64,000 nucleotides of DNA from Candidatus Magasanikbacteria bacterium GW2011_GWA2_56_11. Lineage in GTDB: Bacteria; Patescibacteriota; Patescibacteriia; Magasanikbacterales; UBA922. The notes under the pieces were generated by a model that worked only from the letters and a program-made list of their open reading frames with translations, had not been told where the DNA came from and searched no databases. Positions 3,637 to 52,118 of the stretch are shown here, in pieces. The stretch lies in NCBI GenBank assembly GCA_001004885.1, contig LCRX01000001.1, positions 9,849-73,848 on the forward strand. The letters are read 5' to 3'. The translations under genes and the position numbers were made by a program. Numbering within the stretch: the stretch's first letter is position 1; each line of letters begins with the position of its first letter.

Positions 3637-5370
3637 GTGGAGCATAAGGCGCTGAATTTACTTCGGCGGCTAATGCCCCGCAAGGATACGACCATAGGGC
3701 GGGGGGAAAGCAGGTTACTCTTGGCCGCTTCAATCGCAGCCGCGCAAGACCTCGTCCGGCTCTTTGCCGGGTGGGGTCTGGCGTACCTCGATAGCCTCAT
3801 CCGGATCGACTCGTCGAGCGACGAGCGCTCCGGCACGGTTCCGAGCACGCCCGGGCAGCTGGCCCTTCTGGACTTCCTTCGCGAGGTCCTGGGGGGCTTC
3901 GGCTACCAGTGCGAGACCGACGCCTCCGGGGCGCTGCTCGCGCACGTCGGCGCCAACCTTCCGGCGGGCTCTACGTGCCCACCGGTGGCCTTCATCACGC
4001 ACATCGACAACTCTCTCGGCACCGTCTGTCCGGAGCGCCTCACGCGCGTCGAGCGGTGGGACGGGAGCCGCCTTGCCTACCCTGGCAACCAGCGGCTCAA
4101 CGTCTCGGTTGCCGCCTACCCGGCGCTCCAGGCGTTTGTGGGCCATGACGTCCTCCACGGCCCGGGCACCGGTCCGGTCGGACTGGACGACAAGCTCGGT
4201 GTGGCCGAGGTCCTGACGCTGGCCCGCTACCTGGCGGAACACCCCGAGATCCGGCACGGGACGATCGTCCTGTGCTTCCGGCCGGACGAGGAGATCGGCC
4301 GCGATGAGGCGGTCCAGTCGTTGGCCCGGCGGCTCGCTGAACTCGGCGTGACCCGGGCCTACACCGTGGACGGCCACACGGCGTTCGAGGTGAGCACCGT
4401 TTGCTTCAACGCCAGCGAGATGGCGATCCGCGTTCCGGCTCCGCCTCTCCACCTCACCGACAGCGTCGGGGAGCCCCAGTTCCGGTGCGCTCGCACCATG
4501 CGGCTCCGGATCCAGGGCGTTCGTACGCACGGGGCCACGGCCAAGGCCGAAGGGTACCGCAACGCGGTCCGTATCTTCACGGCCGTGATGAGCCGGATGT
4601 CTTCGTGGCAGCACGTCGTGCCGGTCGAATTCACGACCGATCCGGCGGACGAGACGGCGGCCGATGTCACGATGCTCATCCGTGGCCGCGATGAGTCCGA
4701 GCTCGACCGCTGGCAGAGCATCTTCGTCACTCAACTTGGTCAGGAAGTTGCGCCCCATGCGGAGAGAGGCGCTGGCCAGGAGGTGATGGGTACGGCCGCC
4801 GTCGCGCCGACGGACGGCCAGGGGTTCTCGGACGGCCTTAGGAAGATCATCACGATCATCGTTCTGTTCCAAAACACGCCTTCAGCTCGCCCTCTGTTCT
4901 CCGAGGACAGCGAGGGGTGGGAGGGGTACTCCAACCCCTTCACCATCACTCGTGATGGTGATCACTGGATCGTCCGCTTCCGTCTGCGGGATTTCGATCC
5001 CCGTGACCTGGCGAGGCGGGAGGACCACGTCCAGCGTGTGGCTCATTTCTCGGGCCTGCCCGAGGAGGCTGTCCACCATCGGCCGCAATACCGGGACATC
5101 AGCCCGCGGCTCGAGAGCTACCCGGAGCTCGTCGCCTGGGCCGAGGCGGCGGCCGAGCGCATCAGCGCCTCGATCCAGCGCCATCCGATCCGCGGCGGCA
5201 CTGGCGTCGGCCCGTTCCTGGATGCCGGCATCGGGGTCGCCAACCTCGGCACCGGCTACCACGGGCTCGAGAGCCCTACCGAGCTCACGAGCCTGGAGAT
5301 GATCGGGCGCCACGCCGAGTGGCTCGTCGCTCTCGTCGAGGTGGTCGCCGCGGTCCGCACCGGGTCGTAG
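3637..5370 (+). CDS. M20 family metallopeptidase, peptidase T-like (start codon uncertain, 3637 or 3673); ~68-70% GC island
   Basis: HIDNS..., GLDDKLGVAEV and FRPDEEIGRDE motifs match M20/PepT metal-binding signatures; GC rises abruptly at ~3700. Confidence 0.6.
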   Translation: MEHKALNLLRRLMPRKDTTIGRGESRLLLAASIAAAQDLVRLFAGWGLAYLDSLIRIDSSSDERSGTVPSTPGQLALLDFLREVLGGFGYQCETDASGALLAHVGANLPAGSTCPPVAFITHIDNSLGTVCPERLTRVERWDGSRLAYPGNQRLNVSVAAYPALQAFVGHDVLHGPGTGPVGLDDKLGVAEVLTLARYLAEHPEIRHGTIVLCFRPDEEIGRDEAVQSLARRLAELGVTRAYTVDGHTAFEVSTVCFNASEMAIRVPAPPLHLTDSVGEPQFRCARTMRLRIQGVRTHGATAKAEGYRNAVRIFTAVMSRMSSWQHVVPVEFTTDPADETAADVTMLIRGRDESELDRWQSIFVTQLGQEVAPHAERGAGQEVMGTAAVAPTDGQGFSDGLRKIITIIVLFQNTPSARPLFSEDSEGWEGYSNPFTITRDGDHWIVRFRLRDFDPRDLARREDHVQRVAHFSGLPEEAVHHRPQYRDISPRLESYPELVAWAEAAAERISASIQRHPIRGGTGVGPFLDAGIGVANLGTGYHGLESPTELTSLEMIGRHAEWLVALVEVVAAVRTGS

Positions 5371-9245: not shown

Positions 9246-10238
9246 ATGAGTACGGATATATACCCTACTTACCGACCGCCTGAACCCGCCGTAAAGATTG
9301 AAGGGTCTTATTCTTTAGGACAATTCTTAACAGAAATTTCCCCGGAGGGCCGTAACATTTCTGCAGACCAGGAAGAGGGGTTACTTGGAGATTTAAGGAA
9401 ACGTGAGGCGGCGGTAGCCAACAAGGAATTATTGGAAGCATTAGAGGAATACGGTATTGACCCGCACTTGATTGAAGTTCGTCCCGATGGACGTATTCGT
9501 ATTGAAGTACGCAACCATTTTAGCAAAAAACATTTACCTGATGGGTACGCCTATAAAGGCGGGGCGGCCCGTGCTCTTCTTCTGCGCAGCCTGGGCAGTG
9601 TTTTGCAAGTTGAACCTCGCGATATTGATGTGGTCCGCCTAGCCCCCGAAGAACCGTATAAGGGCGCCGATACGGAGCTTGCCAAAGAGTTTATGCCTGA
9701 TGATTTCTCCGAAGGCTGGGGCGTAGAAATAATTAATTCAGAGGATCAATACTTTTCTACCCGTGATGTAACCGTCAACGAAGTTTTGGCCACCGATCAT
9801 GAAGTAATCGCTACCGAGCAATGCGTTATTGACGCCGTCCGTCATATTATTCGTTTAACCGAATTCGAACGTGGTTCAGACAAAGACATATATACTACTC
9901 CAGGTCCGAAAATGCTAGCGAAAATATTAAGGCTCTACTCTGAGTCTATCCATTATTTTGGTGAGGCGGAGATTGCTAATGTCGAAGGTTGGGAGTTTGA
10001 ACAAGCCTTTATTTCCCCATTTTGGCTGGCGTTGCAGCTTGATCATGCGTTTGAAAGGAGCCGTGAGATCGCCGCGCTCTATGTGGAGGAGCTCAAAAAA
10101 CATGGCCAGGTACCACCCCATATTGCTGGACCCGAGGAGGCAGCGATTTACCTGTCAAATTTGATCCGAGGCGAATTTTATTATCGGCACGCGCCCGTGG
10201 AACAGTTTGAATTGGAAGATGAGTGGATGGAAAATTGA
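9246..10238 (+). CDS. Polymerase-beta superfamily nucleotidyltransferase-like protein (PolyA_pol/CCA-adding head-domain-like motif); low GC (~45%)
   Basis: YKGGAARALLLRSLG...RDIDVV resembles the GGAVRDxLLG...DIDI motif of class II CCA/poly(A) polymerases; rest of the 330-aa protein unrecognised. Confidence 0.4.
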   Translation: MSTDIYPTYRPPEPAVKIEGSYSLGQFLTEISPEGRNISADQEEGLLGDLRKREAAVANKELLEALEEYGIDPHLIEVRPDGRIRIEVRNHFSKKHLPDGYAYKGGAARALLLRSLGSVLQVEPRDIDVVRLAPEEPYKGADTELAKEFMPDDFSEGWGVEIINSEDQYFSTRDVTVNEVLATDHEVIATEQCVIDAVRHIIRLTEFERGSDKDIYTTPGPKMLAKILRLYSESIHYFGEAEIANVEGWEFEQAFISPFWLALQLDHAFERSREIAALYVEELKKHGQVPPHIAGPEEAAIYLSNLIRGEFYYRHAPVEQFELEDEWMEN

Positions 10239-10395
10239 AGATAATTTGTTACTCGTAGACGACAAGGTTTTTGGCTGGAACACCCAGGAACCAGTTGTTC
10301 GACGGTGGATCGGGGCGTTTGTGTTTTTTGGGCTGGCGGTATCGATCGATAGGTTTTTCGGATGAAACAACGCTCCGGTCATAACGGTTACTTTT

Positions 10396-11205
10396 TTAAT
10401 CATCCCCTATATAGTGTTGTTTTTCCCAGGCGTCTCGTGTCATTACGCTAATGTTTTTGACCCCGCCTGCATCTAACATCTCGACGGCCATTTGCCTGTC
10501 CGACTCGCTACCGATCAAAACGGCAACACAATTTCCATCGAGAGGCGCGTCTGATATAGTCGGATACTGTAGCGTGGCGTCATAGCTGCCAAGCTCCATC
10601 ATTTTTGGCCCCATGACAAGGACGACTCCTTTGCCAGACGCACCTACCCCATGTGGGGTTAAACCCTTGTTAATAAGATCGCCATTTTTATCAAAAATAT
10701 CCCTCGTCATCATTACATCATCACTTGCTGACCACGCTGGCGGGTTAGCATCAGGGTTTCTTTTTTTAATTTCTGATCGCGATAAAAGTCCGCCGGCTTC
10801 AATGATTCTTTTAAAATTTTCAAAACTCGTTTGGTGATAATGAAATACTCTTTCGGGAGAATCAATGCGCCCCTTTGCGAATGAGCGTATTTCTGCCAAG
10901 ATAACGCTTGGCTCTACCCCTTTCTCTTTTGCTTTGTGGCGAATCATCCGGTCTTTGCCCCGATAACTTTCCATTTGGAGCCTGGCGAGGAATTGTTGTC
11001 TTTCGGCGGGGGTTAGGGCCGGTTTTTCTTTTTCAGGAACCAAAGCTACTGTTGAATCATAATTCGTATTACCATCCCACGTGGCGGCTTTCGATACGTC
11101 AAACGTACCATCTGCCCGCTGTGCCGCGCCAACAATATACTTTGGTTTTTCGGTGCATGCCCCGGTGGCATGATCCCTTCCACAAACTTTGCATCTTGAT
11201 TCCAT
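10396..11205 (-). CDS. Hypothetical protein with N-terminal CxxC...C zinc-ribbon-like motif (269 aa); low GC
   Basis: CKVCGRDHATGAC at N-terminus; convergent with the NTase-like gene. Confidence 0.35.
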   Translation of the reverse strand: MESRCKVCGRDHATGACTEKPKYIVGAAQRADGTFDVSKAATWDGNTNYDSTVALVPEKEKPALTPAERQQFLARLQMESYRGKDRMIRHKAKEKGVEPSVILAEIRSFAKGRIDSPERVFHYHQTSFENFKRIIEAGGLLSRSEIKKRNPDANPPAWSASDDVMMTRDIFDKNGDLINKGLTPHGVGASGKGVVLVMGPKMMELGSYDATLQYPTISDAPLDGNCVAVLIGSESDRQMAVEMLDAGGVKNISVMTRDAWEKQHYIGDD

Positions 11206-15369: not shown

Positions 15370-15972
15370 ATGCTTGAACACCTCTTTGGTTCAAAGACCC
15401 GCGTCAAGCTTCTTAGGATCTTGTTTCGTTTTCCGGACAGATCATTTTTTGTGCGCGAGATGGCTCGGACGCTGGAGGTGCAGATAAATGCCGTGCGCCG
15501 GGAAATCGAGATTCTGATGTCCGTGGGGCTCTTGCGCGAAGTGGAAGAGAAAAAAGGCCCGGACGAAGAGATACAGGCGGGGGCAATGCTCCGGAAGTAT
15601 TACCGCCTAGACAAGGAGGCCACGCTTTATCCGGAATTGCATGCCCTGCTGGTCAAAGAACAGCTTTTGGGAGAGGAACAGTTCGTGAAGGATCTACAGT
15701 CGAAAATAGGCACGCCGGAATTGTTGCTTTTGACCGGCCGTTTTACCCACGACGACCGGGCGCCGTCGGACATACTTATTGTCGGCAGCGATATTAAGGA
15801 CAAAATCGTGGCCCGGCTGGTGGCCGATTACGAAAAGGACTTTGGCTTTCCGATCCGGTACACGATTATGGACCACCAGGAGTTTACCGACCGGCGGTAC
15901 GTAATGGACAAGTTTCTGTTTTCGCTTTTCGAGGCAAACCATGTGAAAGCGGTTAATGTTTTCGATTTGTAA
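15370..15972 (+). CDS. Winged-helix transcriptional regulator-like protein (200 aa)
   Basis: LFGSKTRVKLLRILF...FFVREMARTLEVQINAVRREIEILMSVGLL resembles ArsR/MarR-type wHTH. Confidence 0.45.
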   Translation: MLEHLFGSKTRVKLLRILFRFPDRSFFVREMARTLEVQINAVRREIEILMSVGLLREVEEKKGPDEEIQAGAMLRKYYRLDKEATLYPELHALLVKEQLLGEEQFVKDLQSKIGTPELLLLTGRFTHDDRAPSDILIVGSDIKDKIVARLVADYEKDFGFPIRYTIMDHQEFTDRRYVMDKFLFSLFEANHVKAVNVFDL

Positions 15973-17274: not shown

Positions 17275-17308
17275 TTATTTTTGGCTAATTATAGGTCAAA
17301 AGATCCCT

Positions 17309-17344
17309 AAACGCCTTGACAAGAGGCGTTTTTTAGTGTATATT
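17309..17344 (+). promoter_or_regulatory. Terminator-like hairpin AAACGCCT/AGGCGTTT+T6 overlapping promoter TTGACA-N17-TATATT
   Basis: read directly; lies between paralog 1 and the high-GC PLP gene. Confidence 0.55.
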
Positions 17345-17420
17345 CGGTTATTCCTCGGCCAGACTCGGCGCGGGGTGCATGCGTTCCCGGCTGGCGTCGG
17401 GAAAGGAGGGGTTACAAACC

Positions 17421-18575
17421 ATGGTACGACAAAGCGTCGGGCAGTGGCTGGAAGCCACCTGCCCGAATTATGACACTGCTCTGTCCCCGGTGAGCCGGGA
17501 GGCCGAGCGCGAGCTGGCCGCCAGCTTCGACGTCAATGTCCCGGACATCCCGTACGCGCGGTACGGGAACACGATCTCGCTGGCCGTAGCCAAGAACTAC
17601 GCCGACCGAGTCGGCGCGACGGGGCTCGGCTTCGAGGCTCGCCTCACCAACTGCGGCATGGCCGCGATCCGGGCGGTGTTCGAGACCGGCATCCGGTGCT
17701 ACGCTGACCATCTCGCCGCCGGGAAGGTCCTGTACGGGCTCACCGACGAGCTCTTCAGGACGGCGCCGGATCTCTTCCGGACCACGAAGCCACACCGCTT
17801 CAACGCCGTCCGCGGCCTCGGACCGGACGTGTTCCCCACCGGGATGCGGTTCATGGTGTTCGTCGAGACGATCGGCAATGGGATCCCCATGCCGGTCTTC
17901 GTTCTCGAGAAGTTCCTGCGCGAGCACTGGAACAACCAGGAGGTCCTCGTCGTAGACGGGACTTTCACCACCTGCGCGCTCCTGAACCCGTTCGGGGTCT
18001 ACGACCGGGTCAGGAGGGATTTCGGTCCGGGCACCATCAAGCTGGTGTACGTGGAGTCGCTCTCCAAGTACTACCGGACCGGGGACATCGACCACGGCAC
18101 GGCCGGGATCATCGTCGCGCCCCAGGTGTTCATCGCCGAGTGCGACAAGGTCCTGGCCCACGGCTTCGGGATCCAGTACCCGCAGCTCGCGGACTTCCCG
18201 GTTGACCTCTTCGGGGCCTGCGCCGAGGTCATGCCGCGACTGTCGTTCAACGCCAAGGCCGCGGCCGAGTTCCTGCGCGGGCATCCGCGCGTGAGGAACG
18301 TGTGGTACCCGGGCTGGGACTCGGAGCTGGCGCGGGGCGCCGGCGGCGTCCTCTACCTCGAGGTCGAGACCGATGAGCGCGGCGCGGGCGAGCGGCTCTT
18401 CGAGCCGGTCATCCCGTTCCGGGCCTCGTTCGGACACGCCCAGTCGACGCACGTCGACTTCGGGCAGTTCAACCAGAGCCTGCCGCCTGGCACCATCCGC
18501 CTCGCGGTCGGCACCCGGGAGACCCCGAGCCAGGTCGTCGCGAAGCTCCAGACGGCCCTCGGGCCGCGCCTCTAG
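17421..18575 (+). CDS. Cys/Met-metabolism PLP-dependent enzyme family protein (cystathionine gamma-synthase/beta-lyase/methionine gamma-lyase-like); ~68% GC
   Basis: YVESLSKYY (PLP-lysine motif S.TKY-like) and C-terminal IRLAVGTRE resemble the IRLSVGIE signature; AAGGAGG RBS before ATG 17421. Confidence 0.6.
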   Translation: MVRQSVGQWLEATCPNYDTALSPVSREAERELAASFDVNVPDIPYARYGNTISLAVAKNYADRVGATGLGFEARLTNCGMAAIRAVFETGIRCYADHLAAGKVLYGLTDELFRTAPDLFRTTKPHRFNAVRGLGPDVFPTGMRFMVFVETIGNGIPMPVFVLEKFLREHWNNQEVLVVDGTFTTCALLNPFGVYDRVRRDFGPGTIKLVYVESLSKYYRTGDIDHGTAGIIVAPQVFIAECDKVLAHGFGIQYPQLADFPVDLFGACAEVMPRLSFNAKAAAEFLRGHPRVRNVWYPGWDSELARGAGGVLYLEVETDERGAGERLFEPVIPFRASFGHAQSTHVDFGQFNQSLPPGTIRLAVGTRETPSQVVAKLQTALGPRL

Positions 18576-18654
18576 TCCTCCCACCATGGTTCTCTACGGC
18601 GCCCACCGGCGCCGCCCGCCCAGTCATCCGACTGGGCTTCTACATTTATATAGG

Positions 18655-18684
18655 TTGCAAAAAAGCTCTCACTGTGGCTAAAAT
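18655..18684 (+). promoter_or_regulatory. Promoter TTGCAA-N17-TAAAAT upstream of paralog 2
   Basis: near-consensus -35/-10 with 17-nt spacer. Confidence 0.45.
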
Positions 18685-18701
18685 ACTCCTGTTGAGCTTG
18701 A

Positions 18702-19535
18702 ATGGCTATGGAAAATACAAACTGGCGGACAGATTTCGCCGAACGCTGGGTGAAGTATTGGACCCCGCCCGCTCGCCCGACGCCGGGTTCGCTGGCTTTT
18801 ATTCAGGAGAAGCTGGCTGCCTATCCGAAAAAAGGTCCCCGTGTCCTAGTTCTTGGATCAACGAGCGAGTTCCGGGATATGTTGTTTGACCGGGGAATCC
18901 GGCCGGCCGTCGTCGATTTTAGCCGCGACAACTACCGCATCCTTTCGCAAGCGATGCGGCACAAAGACGAGTACGAAGACAATGAGCGGTATGTCGAGGC
19001 CGACTGGTGCGCGATGGATTTGGGAGAAGAGTTCGACATTATTCTTGGTGATGCGGTTTTTAATATTGTTCCGAAAGAGTCCAACGGGCGGCTGCTCGGA
19101 AACATTAAGCGGCACTTGGCTCCGGAAGGAATATATATCGAGCGGGTGCATGTCTTCCCGGAAAAATATCGCGGGTTTGATATCGCGGCCGAAACCAAGA
19201 AGCGCCGCGAGGACATCGCGCGGCATTCTTTTTACTACGTATTTGGCACGCCTTCATACCTGGCGGCGATGGAAAAAGACAACGAACCGATACCGTTAAA
19301 GAAAGTATCGAGTCTCGTCGACGGCATATATGCCGAAGGACTTATCACGCCCGGCCAGTACGAAGAGTGGCGGCGGCTCGGCAAGCACCTGACCGATTTT
19401 GTTTTCTTTCTTCCGACCGAACAGTTCGCCCGCGACCGGCTGGCGGAATACTTTGCGATCGCGGAGGTGCATGTTGATTACGATTTTCCGTTTTACCCCG
19501 AGTTCTACCCCAATTTTGTGTTAAAAAAATTCTGA
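18702..19535 (+). CDS. SAM-methyltransferase-like paralog 2
   Basis: WTPPARPTPGS; VLVLGSTSEFRDML; VVDFSRDN (post-I); FDIILGDAVF (II); LAPEGIY (III). Confidence 0.55.
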   Translation: MAMENTNWRTDFAERWVKYWTPPARPTPGSLAFIQEKLAAYPKKGPRVLVLGSTSEFRDMLFDRGIRPAVVDFSRDNYRILSQAMRHKDEYEDNERYVEADWCAMDLGEEFDIILGDAVFNIVPKESNGRLLGNIKRHLAPEGIYIERVHVFPEKYRGFDIAAETKKRREDIARHSFYYVFGTPSYLAAMEKDNEPIPLKKVSSLVDGIYAEGLITPGQYEEWRRLGKHLTDFVFFLPTEQFARDRLAEYFAIAEVHVDYDFPFYPEFYPNFVLKKF

Positions 19536-19538
19536 TCT

Positions 19539-20390
19539 ATGGCCCCGAGCACCGCGGTTCCGGAAACCTATGGCACGCCCTGGAAAAAGATCGCGGCTAA
19601 TTGGGCGAAACTTGGCGATGGTAACCATCCATCGCCTCACGATTTGGCTATTTATAAAAAGTACATGGATCAGGCGATCGCAAATGTGGCCGAGCCGCGC
19701 GTCGTGGTGTTTGGAGCGACGCCGGAGCTTCGGGATATGCTCGCGCGCGAGAGAGGGATTGCGGTGACGGTTCTCGATCTTAATTTAGAGATGATCCGGG
19801 CCATGACCGAGCTTATGACCGAGGCGCCGGACCGGGAGACCTGGATCGAGGGGAACTGGCTGGAAGCCCGGCTACCCAGCAACACTTATCAGGTGGTGTT
19901 TGGCGATCAAATTCGGGGCAATGTCCCGTTTGCCCGGCAAGAGGATCTTTACCGCACGATCCACCGAATTCTCGCCCCGGGCGGCGCGCATGTTACCCGC
20001 GATACCAGTCATTTGCCGGAGACCCGTATCCATGATCCGGAAGAGCTAATTGCCAAGTTCGCGGCCGTCCCCTCGACGAAAGAGACGCTGACCGAGTTCA
20101 TGAATACACTTCTCTTTTTGACTCATCGAAATCCAGAGTCAACGACCGATCGGATGTTCTCTCTCCTTGAAAGACATCTGGACCAGCCTTTTATCCGCTC
20201 GTACTACGAACAGATTACGGAAATTCTACCGCGCGGCCAGTCGTGGAATATCGGCCGAAGCTGGGACGAGGTTAGCCGGTCGCTGCTGCGGTATTTTGAA
20301 ATTGCCGACAAGGAACAGGACGATACCGTTTTTGCCGATACCACTTACGTCTATAACTTAAAACCGCGCGCGATAAGTAACTTATCTTGA
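19539..20390 (+). CDS. SAM-methyltransferase-like paralog 3
   Basis: VVVFGATPELRDML; TVLDLNLEMIRAM; YQVVFGDQIRGNV; LAPGGAHV. Confidence 0.55.
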   Translation: MAPSTAVPETYGTPWKKIAANWAKLGDGNHPSPHDLAIYKKYMDQAIANVAEPRVVVFGATPELRDMLARERGIAVTVLDLNLEMIRAMTELMTEAPDRETWIEGNWLEARLPSNTYQVVFGDQIRGNVPFARQEDLYRTIHRILAPGGAHVTRDTSHLPETRIHDPEELIAKFAAVPSTKETLTEFMNTLLFLTHRNPESTTDRMFSLLERHLDQPFIRSYYEQITEILPRGQSWNIGRSWDEVSRSLLRYFEIADKEQDDTVFADTTYVYNLKPRAISNLS

Positions 20391-20393
20391 TTT

Positions 20394-21203
20394 ATGGCCA
20401 TCGCCAACTGGCAACCGACCAAAGCAGAATTTTGGAAAAATCTTCCCGCCCCGGCGCGGCCGTGGCCGAGCGAAGTCGCATGGTTTGAAAAGTATATTCT
20501 CGAGAAGAAGGCCAACGGGCCGGTGGACGTCCTTATTTTAGGTTCGACTGTCGAATTTCGCTCTTTGTGCCACCAGCACGGCGCGCGCGTGCACATAGTG
20601 GATTTTTCCGATAAGTTCTATCGGATACTGTCCGAACAGCCGATGGAATATCGGGGAGAAGAGGCTTTTTACGAACAGGATTGGCGGACAATGGAGCTTG
20701 GTCGGCAGTTTGATCTAATTTTCGGAGACTGGGTGCCGGGGGTGCTCCACACCGTCGATTACGATGTATTTTTCAAACGCATCGTCGCGCATCTCAAAGA
20801 CGACGGATTATTTATCGCCCGCGAGTGCCTTCGCCCCGATCGCACGGTCGTCGATTTGGCCGCCGTGGTCAAGAAACACAACGCCGAATACGCCGACAAG
20901 TACTCTTTTTACGAAAGCTCAATGCAGTATGTTTACGGGTACCGCCCCGACCCGGTCACGGCGATGTGGGATATTCCCGCGGCCCAGTCGGCGCTCGATA
21001 AAGTCCACGCGGACGGTCTTCTCAAAGACAGCGACTATGATTTTTTTACCCGGGCGCTCGCGGTCGAGAAAAGTCCGGCTTCGATCATGGTGGCGGAGGA
21101 TTTTGACCGGGAGGTACAAGGGTACTTTGTTATCCAGGCAAAGCATTTCGGCAACGAGCCGTCGCATAATTGGTACCCTGTTTATGTGTTGAAGAAAAAA
21201 TGA
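20394..21203 (+). CDS. SAM-methyltransferase-like paralog 4
   Basis: LPAPARPWPSE; VLILGSTVEFRSLC; HIVDFSDKF; FDLIFGDWVPGVLH; LKDDGLF. Confidence 0.55.
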   Translation: MAIANWQPTKAEFWKNLPAPARPWPSEVAWFEKYILEKKANGPVDVLILGSTVEFRSLCHQHGARVHIVDFSDKFYRILSEQPMEYRGEEAFYEQDWRTMELGRQFDLIFGDWVPGVLHTVDYDVFFKRIVAHLKDDGLFIARECLRPDRTVVDLAAVVKKHNAEYADKYSFYESSMQYVYGYRPDPVTAMWDIPAAQSALDKVHADGLLKDSDYDFFTRALAVEKSPASIMVAEDFDREVQGYFVIQAKHFGNEPSHNWYPVYVLKKK

Positions 21204-22033
21204 ATATGCCGACCGCACTTTCGAGCACTAAAACCAATTGGAATTACGCCGAAATTTGGGACCAATTCCCGGTGCCGGCTAGGCCGACTCCGTCGGAGAT
21301 TAAACTTTTGGAGAGCGAATTAAAACGTCGCCTGGCCAAAAACAGCCGTCTAAAGCTGCTGATCTTGGGATCAACGATTGAGTACCGTTCGTTAGCCCGG
21401 CATTTGGGCGTTAAACCATACGTGGCGGATTTTTCCCGCGCCAATTACGAGGCCCTGACCGCCTTTTCGCGGGAAAAATTTCCCGGGGAGCATTTCATCG
21501 AAATCAACTGGCTGGATATTGCCGCCGACGGCACGTATGACGTCATAGTCGGACACCGGGTCATGAACGTTGTTAAACATACGGATCTGGTCCGCATGTT
21601 TGCTGTTATGCACCGGGCGCTCAAGCCTGAAGGCGTCTATTTTTGCCGAGGCAATGTCTGGCTGCCCAAAGACAAAGATCGGCTGGCCGAATTGGTGAAA
21701 GCCTACGCTTTTAAGAAACGCCGGCCGCACCCGCTGTTCACGTATTTGGAAGTCGCGTTGTATTTCCATTCGGCCGATCGCCGTGGGTATGTTAATTATC
21801 CGCTGGCTCGCCGCCTGGCGAAAGAGTGGCTGAAAGACGGTCGGATATCCCGCGCTGATTACGAACGGACGACCCCGCTCATTTCCATGCCCAAGGGCAC
21901 CAAGTTTCGCGGGTTAATTCGTCGCGAGGAGATAGTCGCTGCCTATACGGCCGCGGGTTTCAAGCAAGTTTCCTGGCTGTTCACCAGGGAAGATTATTGC
22001 CGGAATATGCCGATTATCAAGTTAAGCAAATAA
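21200..22033 (+). CDS. SAM-methyltransferase-like paralog 5 (ATGA start/stop overlap with paralog 4)
   Basis: FPVPARPTPSE; LLILGSTIEYRSLA; YVADFSRAN; YDVIVGHRVMNVV; LKPEGVYF. Confidence 0.55.
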   Translation: MNMPTALSSTKTNWNYAEIWDQFPVPARPTPSEIKLLESELKRRLAKNSRLKLLILGSTIEYRSLARHLGVKPYVADFSRANYEALTAFSREKFPGEHFIEINWLDIAADGTYDVIVGHRVMNVVKHTDLVRMFAVMHRALKPEGVYFCRGNVWLPKDKDRLAELVKAYAFKKRRPHPLFTYLEVALYFHSADRRGYVNYPLARRLAKEWLKDGRISRADYERTTPLISMPKGTKFRGLIRREEIVAAYTAAGFKQVSWLFTREDYCRNMPIIKLSK

Positions 22034-22036
22034 ATT

Positions 22037-22894
22037 ATGCCCGCAAAGGAAACGTTTGCCACGCCTTGGAAAGACCTCGCGAACCGTTGGGAAGCGTATT
22101 ACACGCCGCCGGGCCGGCCGTCGCCTGAAGATTGCCAGCTCTACGCTAAATACGTCCGTCGGGCCCTGGGAAAAAAGAAGTCTGGCCGGGCGCTCGTATT
22201 AGGCGCCACACCCGAGATCCGTAATTTGCTCCATAAACTGCCGGTCGAAGTAACGTCGCTCGACATCAATTTGGAAATGATACTCGCCATGAATCGCTTT
22301 GTCCCGCAGTGCGAGAAGGATATTTTGGTCCGCGGCAGCTGGGTGGATAATCCGCTCAAGAGTGGCTATTTTGACGCGGTTATCGGGGATTATTCGTGGT
22401 CGAATGTTCCCCGACGCCAGTGGACTCAGTTTAATGAGACGGTCGCGAGGCTTCTTACGCCAGCCGGGCTTTACGTCCATCGCGTTCATTTGGTGCCGGA
22501 CGGCTGGCAACGCGAATCGGCGTTGCCGATAGTTCAAGATTATGCCAGTCGGCCATACAGCCGGCAGCTGGCATTTGAATTGTTTTTTAAACTGCTCACT
22601 AATACTTACAACAAACGCGATCGCAGCGTATCGATGCGGCGAATTTGGGATGATCTGGCTTCATTTTGGCGCGCCGGGAAATTTGTGAGGGGGGCGTCAA
22701 TTCCAGGCGCCGGCCGGCTGTTGGCTGACCTGCATAAATTTTGGGGTACGACTGACAAAACGTGGCAGATTGGATATAAGAGCGATCTCCTGGCTGACAT
22801 CGGTCCCTATTTTCAACTCGGCGAAAGCGTCAAGGCAAACGATTATGACGATGCCGGCTGCGTCGAGATGTGGATATGCCGGAAAAGGCCGTAA
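22037..22894 (+). CDS. SAM-methyltransferase-like paralog 6
   Basis: YTPPGRPSPED; ALVLGATPEIRNLL; VTSLDINLEMILAM; FDAVIGDYSWSNV; LTPAGLYV. Confidence 0.55.
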   Translation: MPAKETFATPWKDLANRWEAYYTPPGRPSPEDCQLYAKYVRRALGKKKSGRALVLGATPEIRNLLHKLPVEVTSLDINLEMILAMNRFVPQCEKDILVRGSWVDNPLKSGYFDAVIGDYSWSNVPRRQWTQFNETVARLLTPAGLYVHRVHLVPDGWQRESALPIVQDYASRPYSRQLAFELFFKLLTNTYNKRDRSVSMRRIWDDLASFWRAGKFVRGASIPGAGRLLADLHKFWGTTDKTWQIGYKSDLLADIGPYFQLGESVKANDYDDAGCVEMWICRKRP

Positions 22895-22903
22895 ACTTTG
22901 CTT

Positions 22904-23770
22904 ATGGCTGGTTACATTGACCAAAAAAAAGACGAATGGAGCGGACAAGTCGCAGCCGCCCGGACAAAGGACCGGTCGCAGTACCCGGGCGGGCCGTCCG
23001 CGAGTCCGGCGATTTTGGCGACCTACGCGCGCCTGATCAACTCGGCTATCGCCGGCAAACAGGCATTCACGGCCTGCGTCCTCGGGGCAACGCCGGAACT
23101 CAGGGACATGGTTCTCGAACGCGGCGGCAATTTGACGACGCTCGACATCAGCGACGAGATGATAGCCAAATGCGCGCCGCTCATGCGCCACCAAGAAAAT
23201 ACTCGCGAAACCGTGCGGATCGCGAGCTGGCTTGATGCTTCGCTTCCGGCCGCCGCGTTCGATTTGGTCCTCGGCGACGGTGCGTCGAACAATATTCCGC
23301 CGGACAAACAAACCGAGTTTTTTGCCAACCTTCGCCGGCTGCTTCGTCCGGGCGGGACTTTGGTTCTGCGCGAGGGCGTTATTCATCCGGACCGCCCGGT
23401 CCGGACAGTGGCCGAGATCAGCCGGGAATTTGACGAAGGCGGCGCGCACTGGTTCGATACCTTTTACGACCTTTATTTGTACAGCGAACTTACCCCTCGC
23501 TACCGCGACCCGGAGACGAGCCGGACCAATCTGGGCGCCTTTTGGGAAGAAATCCGGCAAGCCCGTGAATCCGGCGGTCTTGGCCAGGCCGCTTTCGAGG
23601 CCATGTGGTGGTTCCGCGGTAAAATTATCCATACCATTTATCTGAAACCGGAGTTGGAGAAGTTGATGGCCGGTCATTTTTTCCTTTCTCCGGTGGCTCC
23701 CGATCCCGATCATCTGCGGATGACAAAGGATAGCTGGTTATTTTTCGCGGGCCGGCCGCGTAATCCATAA
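22904..23770 (+). CDS. SAM-methyltransferase-like paralog 7 (ATG 22904; TTG 22898 also possible)
   Basis: ACVLGATPELRDMV; TTLDISDEMIAKC; FDLVLGDGASNNIP; LRPGGTLVL. Confidence 0.55.
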   Translation: MAGYIDQKKDEWSGQVAAARTKDRSQYPGGPSASPAILATYARLINSAIAGKQAFTACVLGATPELRDMVLERGGNLTTLDISDEMIAKCAPLMRHQENTRETVRIASWLDASLPAAAFDLVLGDGASNNIPPDKQTEFFANLRRLLRPGGTLVLREGVIHPDRPVRTVAEISREFDEGGAHWFDTFYDLYLYSELTPRYRDPETSRTNLGAFWEEIRQARESGGLGQAAFEAMWWFRGKIIHTIYLKPELEKLMAGHFFLSPVAPDPDHLRMTKDSWLFFAGRPRNP

Positions 23771-24621
23771 TGTCAACCGCTATGAGTCAACCGCAAAGCT
23801 GGACGCCGATCGCGGACAATCGGGCGCGTCCCGGGAATCGTGTGCCGCCGTTCGCGCCTTCGAGCGCCGAGCTTGGCGTATATGCTAAGTACGTCGGAAG
23901 AGTCCGGGAAAACCCCAGTCTGCCGCCGCGGGCGCTCATCTTGGGGTCGACTCCGGAGCTGCGTGATCTCACGATAAGCGCCGGGCTCGAAGCGCACGCC
24001 CTGGATATCAGCCCCGAGATGCTGGTTAAATTTTCGGCTCTCATGGAGCACGCCGGAAGCGAGCTCGATAAACGCCATCTCGGCGACTGGCGGGCGACCG
24101 AATTTCCCGCCGGTTACTTTGGTTTAGTTTTCGGCGACGGATCGCTAATGAGTCTCGCCAGCCGCGAAGACAATGAAACTGTTGTCGGAAGGTGCGCGCG
24201 AAGTCTCTCGCCTGGGGGTTATCTGGTGGCGCGCAACAGTTGCTTTGTTTCGGATTACGACGGTTATCGCGATGCGTCTGCCCTGGTCGGGGATTACCGC
24301 GCGGGCAAATTGACCTGGAATGATCTTTTTATGGAGCTAAGGTTTTTCGTTTTTAAAGATCAGGCGTACAATCCGGCAAACTTCCAGTACGACGCCGGTG
24401 TGACTTTCCGGCGCATAGACGAGCTTCAGGCCGCCGGTCTTTTGCCCGACGGGGAGTACAAGCGCATCAATGAATTCAGGAATTCCATAATCAATACCGT
24501 TTACCCGGAGGCGGAATTCGTCTCCATGGTTGGACGCCATGGTTTCCGACTCGAGGAAACTTTTCACGACGGACCGGAGTTGTTTTTCCGCCATTTTTTT
24601 ATGCTGGCGTTTGCCCGGTAG
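23770..24621 (+). CDS. SAM-methyltransferase-like paralog 8 (TAATG overlap with paralog 7)
   Basis: ALILGSTPELRDLT; HALDISPEMLVKF; FGLVFGDGSLMSL; LSPGGYLVA. Confidence 0.55.
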   Translation: MSTAMSQPQSWTPIADNRARPGNRVPPFAPSSAELGVYAKYVGRVRENPSLPPRALILGSTPELRDLTISAGLEAHALDISPEMLVKFSALMEHAGSELDKRHLGDWRATEFPAGYFGLVFGDGSLMSLASREDNETVVGRCARSLSPGGYLVARNSCFVSDYDGYRDASALVGDYRAGKLTWNDLFMELRFFVFKDQAYNPANFQYDAGVTFRRIDELQAAGLLPDGEYKRINEFRNSIINTVYPEAEFVSMVGRHGFRLEETFHDGPELFFRHFFMLAFAR

Positions 24622-48322: not shown

Positions 48323-48910
48323 ATGAAAATGACGTCCGCAGTTATTGAGATAATAACGCTTATTATCGTAATTTTAGGCTTACTTTTTTTTGATTTTGCC
48401 ACAAGCAATTACGTTGTCCTCATTTCAATTCTAGTTGTCGGTTCTCGACTGGGATGGCTCTTTTACAAAAGAGAATTAACCCTGAAAGCAAATATCCAGA
48501 AAGAAGGCAGAATTTTTTCCGGGTGGATGAGGTATGGGACAATACTGTTGCTAGCGTTCGGTTTGTTGTTTGTATTCCAAGATGACATTAAAGGTTTGCC
48601 TATCTGGCTTACCGACCAAGAGCCTGTTTGGTTTACCTTTTTTCATGTGGGGGCACAGGAGGCAATTTTTAGGGTTTACCTTTTAAGCAGACTACAGACA
48701 ATACTTGATAGCCGAGCTGTTATTGCGGTTCTAGGCGGTCTTTTGTTCGGAGTTGTCCATTTCATTTTACCCGGTGCTTTGATAGTCGTGGCCTTCACCT
48801 CCATCTTGGGTACCGCCTGGTGTTACGTTTATCAACGGTATCCTAATTTCATCCTTGTCTGGCTTTCTCACACTTTGTTAAATTTCGCAATTAAGAGTTT
48901 GGTACAGTAG
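48323..48910 (+). CDS. CPBP family intramembrane metalloprotease (CAAX protease/Abi-like); ~40% GC
   Basis: motifs QEAIFR (EExxxR-like), FGVVHF (FxxxH), SHTLLNF (HxxxN) in a polytopic membrane protein. Confidence 0.6.
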   Translation: MKMTSAVIEIITLIIVILGLLFFDFATSNYVVLISILVVGSRLGWLFYKRELTLKANIQKEGRIFSGWMRYGTILLLAFGLLFVFQDDIKGLPIWLTDQEPVWFTFFHVGAQEAIFRVYLLSRLQTILDSRAVIAVLGGLLFGVVHFILPGALIVVAFTSILGTAWCYVYQRYPNFILVWLSHTLLNFAIKSLVQ

Positions 48911-48973
48911 GTCAACCATTTTAGTATATAACGGACCAAGTGTTACCTGACTCGTAGGGGTGACACTAAGGCA

Positions 48974-49061
48974 GTCCTAACTTCATACACCAAACGGCTC
49001 GGGTTAAAAGATGGCTCATTTAACCATCTTTTTTCGTACCCTTTGGCCGGGTTTGAACTGC
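48974..49061. repeat. Intergenic repeat family copy A (GTCCTAAC...CCAAACGGCTCGGGTTAAAAGATGG..CCATCTTTTTT..CGTACCCTTTGGCCGGGTTTGAACTGC)
   Basis: shares ~88 bp with copies at 50056 and 51839 including terminator-like hairpin. Confidence 0.8.
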
Positions 49062-49104
49062 AGTAGATCATCTGTTATTATAAACCCAGCCATAAATTTA
49101 GCGT

Positions 49105-49575
49105 ATGAATAAGATTATAGTTATAAGAGGGCCACTAGGTGTGGGTAAAACGACTGTTTCAAAGCTGTTAGCTAAAAAGCTTGGAGCAGAGTATCTGTCG
49201 GTTGATAAAATTCTTAGTGATAACAATTTAGATAAGGACGACGATATCTCAGTTGAAAATTTTTTGAAAGCCAATGAAATAATTACTGGAATTTCCGATG
49301 GAAATAGAGGACCGTATGTTATTGACGGGAATTTTTACTACCAGAAACAAATTGACGATCTAAAAAATAGATTTAAAGATGGAGTGGCTATCTTTACTAT
49401 TACAAGTACTGTAGAGAAATGTATTAAGCGAGACGCACAAAGGGAAAAAGTATATGGCGAAGATTCTGTGAGGTATGTATACATGGTGGTGTCTAAAGTT
49501 AAGGCGGGTATTGAAATAGATAATACTGACCTAACAATAGAGGAGACTATTCAAACAATAATAGACAACTTGTAG
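49105..49575 (+). CDS. P-loop NTPase/kinase-like protein (156 aa); low GC
   Basis: Walker A GPLGVGKTT; size and layout like small nucleoside/shikimate-kinase-type or zeta-toxin-like AAA proteins. Confidence 0.55.
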   Translation: MNKIIVIRGPLGVGKTTVSKLLAKKLGAEYLSVDKILSDNNLDKDDDISVENFLKANEIITGISDGNRGPYVIDGNFYYQKQIDDLKNRFKDGVAIFTITSTVEKCIKRDAQREKVYGEDSVRYVYMVVSKVKAGIEIDNTDLTIEETIQTIIDNL

Positions 49576-49588
49576 CCCAAAGTAGTAT

Positions 49589-51996: not shown

Positions 51997-52118
51997 TTGA
52001 CAAAATCATTTTTTTTCTGATAGGTTAGGTGAACTTGCACGGACAAGGACGGTTGCACTCAGGATGGCGGGATGGGCCCGTTAATCTTTGTGGAACCTCG
52101 AAGGAGCGTGAGTTTATG

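Follow-up and report, generated by a model that had tools for sequence, protein, structure and literature searches.

A gene for a PLP-dependent enzyme, far richer in GC than its surroundings, lies between two methyltransferase genes in the window (the whole 64,000-nucleotide stretch of DNA analysed here). Comparison of homologous loci demonstrates that the gene is native and has been co-inherited vertically as part of a conserved module of methyltransferases and a rifampin-phosphotransferase (RPH)-like protein. The same comparison establishes that its GC-richness is a gene-specific equilibrium in every lineage carrying the module, not a trace of foreign origin, and no standard explanation appears to account for the excess.

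The GC-rich gene and its product

Features in and around the gene are listed in Table 1. The preliminary description, made from the letters of the window, had placed a single gene of ~68% GC between methyltransferase paralogues 1 and 2 and put it more than 10 GC points away from the flanking array. The measured values agree, with GC of 0.679 in the PLP gene as against 0.553 and 0.529 in the flanking methyltransferase genes, whose GC3 is 0.65 and 0.63 (0.61-0.68 over the flanking methyltransferases as a group). The GC3 of the PLP gene is the highest of the 39 genes in the window (z = 3.1). The most likely start codon is ATG 17421, which has AAGGAGG, the strong ribosome-binding site noted earlier, 11 nucleotides upstream; the in-frame ATG at 17379 used in the public gene call has no ribosome-binding site and lies 5′ of the start of every homologue. 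Rejected as a gene was the antisense ORF, which contains no stop codon in the window and 2-15 stops in the same frame in all five orthologues tested; it is evidently a by-product of the high GC3.

The abrupt change in composition, and nothing else, would fit an assembly chimera, with a piece of some high-GC organism fused into the contig. However, an independent ENA assembly of the same run agrees over window positions 7379-28575 with a single mismatch, and this range includes both junctions (17280-17420 and 18576-18701) for which the preliminary description had sought support. The same architecture also occurs in at least nine other, unrelated assemblies of other organisms, made by different groups with different assemblers, and the regulatory signals run unbroken across both junctions, which puts a chimera practically out of the question.

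Table 1. Features of the PLP gene and its module in the window
Feature	Position	Strand	Remarks
Methyltransferase paralogue 1, 269 aa	16465..17274	+	Class I SAM-methyltransferase family
Intrinsic-terminator-like hairpin and T-run	17309..17335	+	9-bp stem 17309-17331, -11.7 kcal/mol, z -3.1
Predicted promoter TTGACA-17-TATATT	17316..17344	+	11/12 consensus match
Predicted 5′ UTR, ~70 nt, GC 0.67, AAGGAGG at 17403-17409	17351..17420	+	
391-codon antisense ORF spanning whole PLP gene, not a gene	17412..18587	-	
PLP-dependent enzyme gene, 384 aa, GC 0.679, GC3 0.925	17421..18575	+	
Two tandem GC-rich 3′ UTR hairpins	18597-18614, 18618-18637	+	-31.8 kcal/mol, z -5.0
Promoter-like TTGCAA-18-TAAAAT before downstream methyltransferase array	18655..18684	+	9/12
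Methyltransferase paralogue 2, 277 aa	18702..19535	+	Conserved downstream partner of PLP gene
Six more methyltransferase paralogues, tightly packed	19539..24621	+	Mutually 17-30% identical
PEP-utilizers (swivelling phospho-histidine domain) protein, 515 aa	24637..26184	+	Conserved last module member

The assignment to Cys/Met-metabolism PLP enzymes, based at first on the motifs ESLSKYY and IRLAVGTRE, holds: both motifs are present, and the protein passes PF01053 (Cys_Met_Meta_PP) with 47.4 bits against a cut-off of 27, the best stretch aligning residues 39-191 only. The AF2 model (pLDDT 87, pTM 0.88) is predicted to have the three-domain gamma-family fold, and its top 50 Foldseek matches are all methionine gamma-lyases (MGL), cystathionine gamma-synthases (CGS) or OAH sulfhydrylases (TM 0.68-0.73). 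The best PDB matches are MGL and CGS (TM ~0.70, 20-23% identity), and the subfamily profile matches 50 members of the Cys/Met-metabolism family in the PDB at E<1e-10. Residues Y45, R47, G79-M80, Y105, E149, D179, S213, K216, S336, G338-H339 and R360 are invariant in the family and align with the phosphate, stacking-Tyr, pyridine-N Asp, Schiff-base Lys and carboxylate-Arg positions of MGL; S213-L-S-K216, D179, Y105 and R360 are identical across 28 members and align to their MGL equivalents. On these alignments and the model, the gene product is an intact fold-type-I PLP enzyme of the CGS/MGL superfamily and belongs to a divergent small subfamily found only in Patescibacteria.

The closest PDB match in both sequence and fold is MGL (EC 4.4.1.11; Citrobacter freundii 2RFV, Pseudomonas putida 1GC0, Trichomonas 1E5E), with profile E values of 1e-20 to 1e-24. 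The two share the PLP lysine, the Asp, the stacking Tyr, the carboxylate Arg and the phosphate-binding Tyr/Arg. They differ in the MGL motifs ETPxNP, HSxTKYxxGH and SLGG, which read ETxGNG, ESLSKYYR and SFGH in the PLP family, and in both MGL signature criteria, the YGC Cys and the Lys-Asp (KD) pair (PMC11568061). The window protein has Y105-G-L-T and other family members YGLT, YPET or YSQT, with Leu or Glu in place of the Cys, and the KD residues fall in an insertion relative to the PLP-family profile and are deleted here. All 27 matches to NCBIfam equivalog models scored 17-45 bits against cut-offs of 440-790, 10- to 20-fold under them, and this includes the MGL equivalogs TIGR01328 (40.9 vs 549.7) and NF005263 (44.3 vs 617).

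The enzyme has its superfamily, length, domain order and catalytic core in common with CGS, beta-lyases, gamma-lyases and O-acylhomoserine sulfhydrylases, but stands apart from the rest of PF01053 as a clade of its own (>400 bits inside, <110 bits outside), and the neighbours of its gene are always methyltransferases, not met/cys genes. To our knowledge, the hosts of the PLP gene generally lack sulfur-amino-acid biosynthesis. Mur24, SbzP, CndF and BesB, which we take to be gamma-family PLP enzymes specialised for natural-product synthesis with SAM or O-acyl-homoserine, are likewise divergent PF01053-type enzymes beside tailoring enzymes such as methyltransferases, and BesB is among the weak PDB matches to the PLP enzyme. 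Their pathways belong to actinomycetes, fungi and other large-genome producers and include NRPS/PKS or other core genes; such core genes are missing around the PLP gene, and a specific relationship is not detectable.

A conserved module and its predicted transcription signals

Thirteen close relatives of the PLP enzyme were found among 5.8 billion proteins; in a set of 1.84 billion, ~40 cluster representatives reached E<1e-30. As to the closest taxon, a question raised at the outset, every strong homologue with a name comes from Patescibacteria (CPR), Parcubacteria or Magasanikbacteria. Scans gave four loci from genome contigs and five from metagenome contigs; a word-index search with a 28-sequence alignment yielded two more proteins amid a flood of generic family members. 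Most contigs share the gene order methyltransferase paralogues, PLP enzyme, methyltransferases, RPH-like protein. This module is present in loci L002-5, L006, L007/8, L009, L010, L016, L021, L022, L023 and a JGI contig, and sits in at least three different genomic neighbourhoods. The association of PLP gene and methyltransferases recurs in ~10 independent Patescibacteria contigs. The presence or absence of the gene in other strains had been named as a check on an insertion; L002, L006, L010 and the JGI contig all carry it at the orthologous site. The methyltransferases on either side of it are orthologous between the window and L002. One Candidatus Magasanikbacteria genome with the same placement has a PLP protein only 48-51% identical; overall, PLP orthologues are 44-51% identical, within the range of the flanking genes (38-67%). 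Four-taxon trees of the PLP enzyme (857/1000) and of the concatenated flanking genes (984/1000) have identical topology, L010 included. Neither mobility genes nor a tRNA nor conserved flanking repeats were found at 15-27 kb of the window.

Atypical composition marks horizontal transfer by the logic of genomic islands, and Lawrence and Ochman reportedly put forward the amelioration model. The PLP gene resembles genes marked in this way, as a lone gene with sharp boundaries whose GC3 exceeds that of the genome by ~3 sd, and a horizontally acquired insertion was one of the two readings first offered for it. Under this reading, a foreign high-GC (e.g., actinobacterial) cassette would recently have entered the methyltransferase array. 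The contrast in GC (0.68 vs 0.53-0.55) and GC3 (0.925 vs ~0.63) with the neighbours would fit, as would the gene's own promoter and hairpins and a 9-bp inverted repeat (ACCATGGT) that brackets the ORF; moreover, a high-GC3 M20 peptidase gene (3637-5370) with closest homologues in Myxococcota suggests that the genome takes up such genes. Yet the PLP gene is found at this same site, with orthologous methyltransferases on either side, in genomes with proteins only ~50% identical, its homologues outside Patescibacteria are related at the generic superfamily level (<110 bits), its tree is congruent with that of the flanks, mobility genes are absent, and the inverted repeat does not occur in the orthologues. 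A recent insertion is thus hardly credible, and the reading as a horizontally acquired insertion is not supported. Unlike genes marked by composition, the PLP gene keeps its position, agrees with its flanks, is confined to one phylum, has saturated synonymous sites and deviates in all orthologues; it is the M20 peptidase gene that shows classical foreign-gene behaviour in the same window. The preliminary description had proposed that a composition matching native genes would speak against transfer. This is the wrong test, since the gene is native and yet deviant in composition in all module lineages, and it would have misled here.

Signals conserved across loci suggest that the PLP gene would form a transcription unit of its own inside the module. 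The transcript from upstream would end at a hairpin that carries the -35 box of a near-consensus promoter in its loop; a leader of 60-100 nt with stem-loops and a strong ribosome-binding site would follow, hairpins would close the PLP transcript, and the next methyltransferase would be fired by its own promoter. In the window, the -35 hexamer sits in the loop of the upstream hairpin, and the transcription start (~17351) is placed from the -10 box. The same hairpin/-35/T-run design precedes the orthologue in L002, L006, L007 and L010, and eight further loci have, 5′ of the orthologue, an exact TTGACA, a spacer of 16-18 nt and a match of 10-12/12. Downstream, the two hairpins at 18597-18637 have no U-run and were not called by the terminator scan; they are a probable transcript end or 3′ protection. 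A canonical hairpin with T-run follows the orthologue in L002, L006, L007, L009, L010, L022 and L023. The -10 box of the downstream methyltransferase promoter lies 8-9 nt from the ATG in L002, L006, L007 and L010 (17 nt in the window), implying that the mRNA in these four loci may be leaderless. Most of this layout had been described beforehand. The hairpin with T-run, its overlap with the promoter and the 17-nt spacer were all recovered, and the promoter called perfect matches 11 of 12 positions; the second promoter-like site was found behind not one but two hairpins, with a spacer of 18 nt instead of 17 and a 9/12 match.

Two further RNA features were considered and rejected. A riboswitch or other known RNA in the UTRs found no Rfam match (E<=1 at 15-27 kb of the window; E<=0.1 in five orthologous loci), and single-sequence folds of the 5′ UTR are stem-loops without a common architecture. 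Base-pairing over a long range between start codon and 3′ UTR would use the palindrome ACCATGGT, of which the window has only two copies, one at each ORF end; the palindrome is not found in eight orthologous loci, and we have treated its position as chance.

GC excess across the module loci

In all nine module loci with enough neighbouring genes, PLP GC3 is 10-45 points above that of the neighbours (z against other genes of the same contig: 3.1, 3.9, 3.1, 2.8, 2.2, 8.2, 4.9, 4.3 and 4.4), and a tenth locus on a short contig shows a small excess. The hosts span 30 to 55% GC and GC3 of 0.23 to 0.67. The more distant subfamilies L020 and L024 show no GC3 excess. C3 on the coding strand is the most enriched base, and GC1 and GC2 are raised somewhat. 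The 3′ UTR is GC-rich in addition, and the 5′ UTR in only two of seven loci. The edges of the GC-rich block are sharp near the transcript ends, most strikingly in L010, where PLP GC3 is 0.75 in a host of 35% GC. At 4-fold sites of conserved codon families, the identity of orthologues equals the expectation from composition (mostly |z|<1.5). These sites are saturated, so third positions have turned over and should be at host equilibrium. Our literature search turned up nothing on this PLP subfamily, nor on a GC excess confined to one gene and conserved across Patescibacteria; the one related paper deals with the canonical methioninases of Gracilibacteria (PMC11568061).

An ancient transfer from a high-GC donor, received before these Patescibacteria diverged and not yet fully ameliorated, would fit the excess seen in all descendants, which tracks host GC. 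It would also agree with the raised GC1 and GC2 and with a trait that arose within the family, as L020 and L024 lack it. It is nevertheless very unlikely, because the saturated third positions have already turned over, the hosts have meanwhile shifted across their whole range of GC3, and the flanks in L010 have gone down to GC3 0.30 with the PLP gene still at 0.75. Recurrent xenologous replacement by copies from GC-richer relatives, as a cassette bounded by promoter and terminator, could explain why the block edges lie near the transcript ends. The module does move as a whole through varied neighbourhoods, and the family is so sparsely sampled that donors could be unseen. Replacement is unlikely all the same, since the PLP quartet has the topology of its flanks even with L010 included, every module locus deviates upward and none downward, and the window copy has 68% GC. 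We know of no Patescibacteria genome as GC-rich as that.

A local, non-adaptive bias is the next explanation, either gBGC at a recombination hot spot or a mutation or repair bias linked to transcription from the strong promoter. It would fit an excess carried by third positions and the 3′ UTR, and consensus promoters precede the gene in all loci; gBGC-like effects on GC3 in bacteria were reportedly described by Lassalle et al. in 2015. However, the sequence bears no mark of a hot spot, and genes 100 nt away are unaffected. Highly transcribed genes are expected to show a C-to-T bias on the non-transcribed strand, and the enrichment of C3 is the opposite. Nor does composition bias alone explain the extra fold stability over codon permutations in the window, L006 and L007. 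We therefore hold a local bias to be rather doubtful.

Selection on translation, in the form of extreme expression with C- or G-ending optimal codons, would be consistent with a promoter close to perfect and a strong Shine-Dalgarno sequence at every locus and with C3 rising preferentially, as expected if NNC is favored over NNU. Against it, ribosomal protein genes of the same contigs show no comparable GC3 shift, which indicates that high expression alone is insufficient. The genes for L10 and L7/L12 are ordinary in GC3, e.g., 0.21 and 0.35 in L010 vs 0.75 for the PLP gene. The 3′ untranslated region is GC-rich as well. Such selection by itself is improbable.

Our best guess is that selection for a strongly expressed, highly structured mRNA maintains the GC content of the PLP gene. 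In this proposal, GC-richness would follow from selection on a transcript that is unusually structured and probably long-lived, and this is the weakest step of the mechanism. Compared with permutations of synonymous codons, the native PLP mRNAs of six loci have fold z of -4.65, -5.12, -2.65, -2.0, -1.29 and -0.54, measured as the MFE of a 1.2-kb RNA, which is a crude measure, and with a permutation that ignores dinucleotides across codon boundaries. Ten control genes from the same contigs range from +1.33 to -2.13 (mean -0.5). The excess in folding is strong in only two of the six loci, the sister pair of the window and L006; L022 shows none, and L010, the locus with the greatest GC excess, a weak one. 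Stable 5′ stem-loops and 3′ hairpins flank the PLP ORF. Symbionts of this kind are usually assumed to have small effective populations, and it is difficult to see how selection at synonymous sites could then hold GC3 45 points above the genome.

More generally, and with confidence that falls a little short of even, we propose that a force on the nucleotide composition or structure of this transcript keeps one vertically inherited gene richer than its genome by 10-45 GC3 points in every lineage, whatever the protein sequence or the genome-wide mutation bias, and that the gene in addition founds a Patescibacteria-specific PLP-enzyme / methyltransferase / phosphotransferase pathway. One candidate is an "armoured" mRNA that withstands ribonucleases or toxins directed at AU; the other is a conversion bias that is strictly local. 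If true, the PLP gene would plainly contradict the practice of taking GC deviation as evidence for foreign origin, and would offer a tractable example of selection at synonymous sites in reduced genomes. A conserved GC excess together with saturated sites and drifting host GC makes a rare clean natural experiment in small symbiont-like genomes, one that bears on how the nucleotide composition of a single gene is kept up. It also calls for caution in annotation, as a gene that looks foreign by the textbook (GC3 3 sd up, a predicted promoter and terminator to itself, sharp edges) turns out to be native.

Module partners and proposed function

Alignment places seven further paralogues of methyltransferase paralogue 1 downstream of it. 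In the Magasanikbacteria locus L002, the methyltransferase directly 5′ of the PLP gene is 45% identical to paralogue 1. Paralogue 2 is 58-63% identical among the window, L002 and L010, and its AF2 model (pLDDT 86) has a class I fold nearest to small-molecule N-/C-methyltransferases; the gene at 19539-20390 shares 54% identity with the second of the downstream methyltransferases in L002. In PDB profile and fold searches, the flanking methyltransferases match the small-molecule N-/C-/O-methyltransferases PMT, ToxA, MtfA, CypM, CcbJ, NodS and SgvM. As to likeness to thiol methyltransferases, Pfam gives generic Methyltransf_11/25 only, and none is among the closest matches; these matches would still allow S-methylation despite the absence of thiol-specific features.

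The PEP-utilizers protein also follows the methyltransferases in L002, L007, L009, L022 and L023. Its residues 285-512 align with residues 639-864 of rifampin phosphotransferase (RPH; PDB 5FBS/5HV1), a region in the C-terminal half that comprises part of the substrate-binding domain and the swivelling His domain. The ATP-grasp domain of RPH is missing from the protein, and none was found elsewhere in the window. L002 encodes a separate PPDK_N protein nearby; homologues of the PPDK_N, HD and 309-aa genes of the L002 module were not found in the window.

The conserved co-location with methyltransferases suggests that the PLP enzyme is a functionally linked partner of theirs. It is fairly likely that the gene is a conserved, separately transcribed partner of the methyltransferase array in groundwater ultra-small bacteria. 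The preliminary description had put forward such a link as its other reading, with a gamma-lyase generating thiols for S-methylation as an example. The link is borne out by the conserved co-location, and the thiol-supplying gamma-lyase is not, given the lack of the YGC Cys and KD pair and of any thiol-methyltransferase match. The PLP enzyme has kept all the PLP-, carboxylate- and proton-transfer residues of the gamma-family, and in the company of SAM-dependent methyltransferases this makes gamma-elimination or gamma-replacement the most likely reaction. It would act on a methionine/homocysteine-type (SAM-cycle-related) amino acid and would feed or clear methyltransferase reactions; methionine/homocysteine-type compounds are the most likely substrate class as judged from superfamily membership and gene neighbourhood alone.

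Patescibacteria metabolism is otherwise minimal, and the module (PLP enzyme, at least two methyltransferases and the RPH-like phospho-histidine protein) is among the few conserved lineage-specific enzyme sets in the group. Its substrate could reveal how these bacteria handle methionine- or SAM-derived compounds or modify host-derived molecules. Membership of the PLP enzyme in a defence system was considered and rejected: PADLOC gave no match for the PLP enzyme or the PEP-utilizers protein, and the methyltransferases gave weak generic methyltransferase matches. In PADLOC, an HTH protein matched PDC-M05A.

Features of the PLP gene and its product

The 384-aa PLP enzyme of the Cys/Met-metabolism fold is encoded between two paralogues of a class-I SAM methyltransferase (MT) array and is indeed GC-rich, as had been described from the sequence alone (GC 0.679, GC3 0.925, compared with GC 0.553 and 0.529 and GC3 0.65 and 0.63 in the adjacent MT genes). 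Its GC3 is the most extreme among the 39 genes of the window (z = 3.1). The likely start is the second ATG of the open frame, because a ribosome-binding site precedes it and all homologues begin there, and the public gene call P0001 probably includes 14 codons too many. The motifs ESLSKYY and IRLAVGTRE both lie in the 384-aa product, which scores 47 bits against Pfam PF01053 (cut-off 27). An antisense ORF spanning the gene in the window was dismissed as a by-product of its high GC3; it is interrupted in all five orthologues tested.

The AF2 model of the PLP protein (pLDDT 87) resembles methionine gamma-lyases and cystathionine gamma-synthases (TM ~0.70, 20-23% identity). Among the residues shared by 28 family members are Y45, G79-M80, Y105, E149, D179, E212-S213, K216, G338-H339 and R360, and R47 and S336 are nearly invariant. 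The conserved residues fall at the positions for phosphate binding, stacking, the pyridine N, the Schiff base and carboxylate binding. An active PLP enzyme of the gamma family, with an alpha-amino acid as its substrate, is expected. Methioninases are recognized by the YGC cysteine and the KD pair (PMC11568061); a canonical methioninase was rejected, since this cysteine is Leu or Glu in the PLP family and the KD pair is missing. Against the NCBIfam equivalog models, the protein falls an order of magnitude short of all cut-offs.

The eight MT paralogues of the window share 17-30% mutual identity and an unusual motif I, LGSTPExRD. Profile and fold comparisons (model pLDDT 86) liken them to small-molecule N-/C-/O-methyltransferases (phosphoethanolamine N-MT, ToxA, MtfA, CypM, CcbJ, NodS, CysG(N-16) and SgvM), and no thiol-methyltransferase signal was found among the profile and fold matches. 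The proposal that the PLP enzyme is a functionally linked partner of the MTs is supported in its general form, that of a conserved module, but not as a gamma-lyase supplying thiols to thiol methyltransferases. The PEP-utilizers protein (PEP, 515 aa) aligns with rifampin phosphotransferase over that enzyme's C-terminal half and has no ATP-grasp domain; a separate PPDK_N protein is encoded in locus L002, not in the window. Because the PLP gene is conservedly paired with SAM-dependent enzymes, the most economical guess is a module substrate derived from methionine, homocysteine or SAM.

Coordinates of the features (window positions unless a locus is named)
Feature	Position	Strand	Detail
Open frame	17379-18575	+	P0001 starts at ATG 17379 (398 aa)
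PLP gene, likely start	17421	+	ATG
Ribosome-binding site	17403-17409		AAGGAGG
Upstream hairpin + T-run	17309-17331		-11.7 kcal/mol, z -3.1
PLP promoter	17316-17344		TTGACA-17-TATATT, match 11/12
Tandem 3' hairpins	18597-18614, 18618-18637		-31.8 kcal/mol, z -5.0
Promoter of the MT after the PLP gene (approximate)	18655-18702; L002 11360-11402; L006 8040-8082; L007 11665-11708; L010 6480-6520		Window: TTGCAA-18-TAAAAT, match 9/12
Palindrome ACCATGGT	17418-17425, 18583-18590		8 bp
HTH protein	15370-15972	+	200 aa
Stretch matching the ENA contig	7379-28575		Sole difference at 22954 (A vs C)
Non-coding stretch	L007 11230-11660		~430 nt, GC 0.6-0.7
Toxin-antitoxin-like pairs	L002 18921-19416; L007 15055-15655, 19823-20492		RHH_1, PhdYeFM, PIN
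PLP, UbiE-like and aaRS-like genes	L020 701-7718
M20/M25/M40 peptidase-like gene	3637-5370	+	577 aa, GC 0.68, GC3 0.85
GNAT acetyltransferase-ASCH fusion	52029-53447	+	472 aa, GC3 0.85
Low-GC islands	9246-11205, 48323-50056		GC 0.38-0.47
ORFs of first island	9246-10238, 10396-11205

Conservation of the module

Both junctions of the PLP gene are real. An independent ENA assembly of a groundwater metagenome (SRR1658344, PRJNA268031) has a 48.9-kb contig encoding an identical PLP protein, and over 21.2 kb this contig differs from the window by one base, inside MT paralogue 7. A chimeric assembly was ruled out by this independent assembly and by the same architecture elsewhere.

Among 5.8 billion proteins searched, 13 relatives of the PLP protein were found, the next best being 48% identical. 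When 1.84 billion representatives were searched exhaustively with a profile, ~13 core clusters scored above 400 bits and 40 reached E<1e-30; past these, the generic superfamily alone appears (<110 bits). All family members with a name are Patescibacteria, Parcubacteria or Magasanikbacteria, and among named relatives a Candidatus Magasanikbacteria genome (Patescibacteria/CPR) is nearest to the window locus. The record holding L006 and L011 (GCA_964359615.1, CAYHTX010000022.1) is titled 'uncultured Gammaproteobacteria bacterium', yet it shows Patescibacteria-type synteny, and its proteins are 50-80% identical to those of the window; the label is probably wrong.

It is evident that the PLP gene adjoins class-I MT paralogues in all the core and second-tier contigs read, and PEP is usually next where the contig continues. 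The window, L002, L006 and L010 share an upstream block encoding L10, L7/L12, a ~750-aa protein (minus strand), a 200-aa HTH protein and a 128-aa TsaB-like protein. In the window, the MT neighbours on either side of the PLP gene are orthologous to their counterparts in L002 (45%, 59% and 54% identity). Among the same four loci, PLP proteins are 44-51% identical and flanking proteins 38-67%. Bootstrapping of a four-point test grouped, for the PLP gene, the window with L006 and L002 with L010 in 857 of 1000 replicates; for the concatenated flanks, this grouping appeared in 984 of 1000. The same position among orthologous MTs and the congruent topology argue against a horizontally acquired insertion, the other option of the preliminary description, which we reject; gene order and topology place the PLP gene among the conserved members of the MT array.

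The HTH protein upstream of the module is 53-58% identical across loci and matches the PADLOC candidate-defence family PDC-M05A (E 3.5e-18). Toxin-antitoxin-like pairs occur among the PEP paralogues of L002 and L007, and none was seen in the window's copy of the module. In L020, a distant subfamily (25% identity), the PLP gene is joined by a start/stop junction to a UbiE-like methyltransferase gene; three class-II aaRS-like (tRNA-synt_2) paralogues surround it and hint at amino-acid ligation chemistry.

Gene order, GC3 and predicted mRNA folding at PLP loci
Locus	Gene order	PLP GC3	Other contig genes	z	Folding z
Window		0.925	0.665 (mean)	3.1	-4.65
L002 (order: L002-L005)	MT-MT-PLP-MT-MT-PEP...	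0.832	0.610	3.9	-2.0
L006	PLP-MT-MT-MT	0.793	0.613	3.1	-5.12
L007 (order: L007/L008)	MT-MT-PLP-MT-MT-PEP x4	0.674	0.494	2.8	-2.65
L009	PLP-MT-MT-PEP	0.330	0.234	2.2
L010	PLP-MT-MT	0.746	0.298	8.2	-1.29
L016	PLP-MT	0.352	0.28-0.31 (neighbours)
L021	MT-PLP	0.448	0.274	4.9
L022	PLP-MT-MT-PEP, quite different neighbourhood between L31/RF1 and S2/EF-Ts	0.846	0.606	4.3	-0.54
L023	As L022	0.803	0.599	4.4
245-kb JGI contig	Synteny as in window

Promoters, hairpins and leaders

The signals previously noted around the gene are largely present. The upstream hairpin and the promoter overlapping it stand as described. The 3' hairpin is in fact a tandem pair, which is not a canonical terminator because it has no U-run, and the spacer of the promoter before paralogue 2 is 18 nt, not 17. 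An exact TTGACA -35 box was found by script upstream of the PLP gene in eight of nine loci, L021 being the exception. Read by eye, these promoters have spacers of 16-18 nt and match 10-12 of 12 positions overall, and L023, an additional locus, has a perfect TTGACA-17-TATAAT. Where the upstream gene is co-directional (the window, L002, L006, L007 and L010), the -35 box lies inside a hairpin of -7 to -14 kcal/mol with T5-T8 behind it, a predicted overlapping terminator and promoter. The deposited PLP protein of L006 (P0002, 421 aa) has an over-extended N-terminus beginning inside this element. A predicted leader of 60-100 nt and then an AAGGAG-type ribosome-binding site follow at the PLP loci. 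An Rfam search of the leaders matched no family, and their folds have stem-loops and nothing else in common.

Hairpin terminators with a T-run lie 3' of the PLP gene in L002, L006, L007, L009, L010, L022 and L023, and the next MT has its own predicted promoter. The -10 box of this promoter is 17 nt from the ATG in the window and 8-9 nt in L002, L006, L007 and L010. The short gap and the absence of a Shine-Dalgarno sequence before the MT in these four loci suggest that its translation is leaderless. In L007, whose genome has 48% GC, a GC-rich non-coding stretch separates the PLP terminator from the next MT; it has no Rfam match, a doubtful 82-aa ORF has been called in it, and it could be a structured RNA of a new type or a decayed gene. 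The palindrome ACCATGGT, of which the 64 kb hold just two copies, covers the start codon of the PLP gene and recurs 8 nt after its stop, as part of a 9-bp inverted repeat (AACCATGGT/ACCATGGTT). This repeat is probably due to chance because it is not conserved among eight orthologous loci.

GC3 excess and its possible causes

The hosts have drifted apart in GC3 (0.23 to 0.67), and the PLP gene lies above its host everywhere; in the outlying subfamilies L020 and L024, GC3 is not raised (z -0.6 and -1.0). We compared 4-fold sites, in codon families conserved between orthologues, with the identity expected from composition. The observed identities are close to expectation (0.45 vs 0.40 between the window and L002, 0.41 vs 0.35 between the window and L010; mostly |z|<1.5), and third positions have therefore been overwritten. 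The 4-fold sites of flanking genes are likewise at expectation. A relic of transfer was rejected on account of these saturated sites and the excess in every host, and recurrent replacement of the PLP copy is quite improbable. Unexpectedly, a native gene has a foreign-looking composition that is conserved and appears to be actively maintained. Our literature search found no description of such a property in a native gene like this one.

The excess is strongest at C3, with smaller shifts at GC1 and GC2. All loci have a GC-rich 3' UTR; a GC-rich 5' UTR is confined to the window and L010. That translational selection raises GC3 here is improbable. Local biased gene conversion or a transcription-linked bias raising the GC of the gene appears rather unlikely. 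We further permuted synonymous codons within genes, a crude method that keeps protein sequence and codon usage fixed. Compared with the permutations, the native PLP mRNA has greater predicted stability, to an extent that is uneven across six loci. For ten control genes from the window and L006, z lies between +1.33 and -2.13 (mean -0.5), and the PLP gene lies below the control in 53 of 60 pairs (P ~0.01, one-sided, hand count). Taken with the consensus promoters, the stem-loops at the 5' end and the strong hairpins at the 3' end, the folding excess weakly favours selection for an abundant and stable transcript. The maintained composition can be tested with existing metagenomic reads.

As a control, the M20/M25/M40 peptidase-like gene of the window has its nearest homologues (~49%) in high-GC Myxococcota/Myxococcales MAGs, not in Patescibacteria, and looks like a genuine inter-phylum acquisition. 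It bears the classical acquisition signature, whereas the PLP gene has no such distant relatives. Two low-GC islands also depart from the window mean (0.556), and the two ORFs of the first have no Pfam match. Another gene of high GC3 encodes a GNAT acetyltransferase-ASCH fusion.
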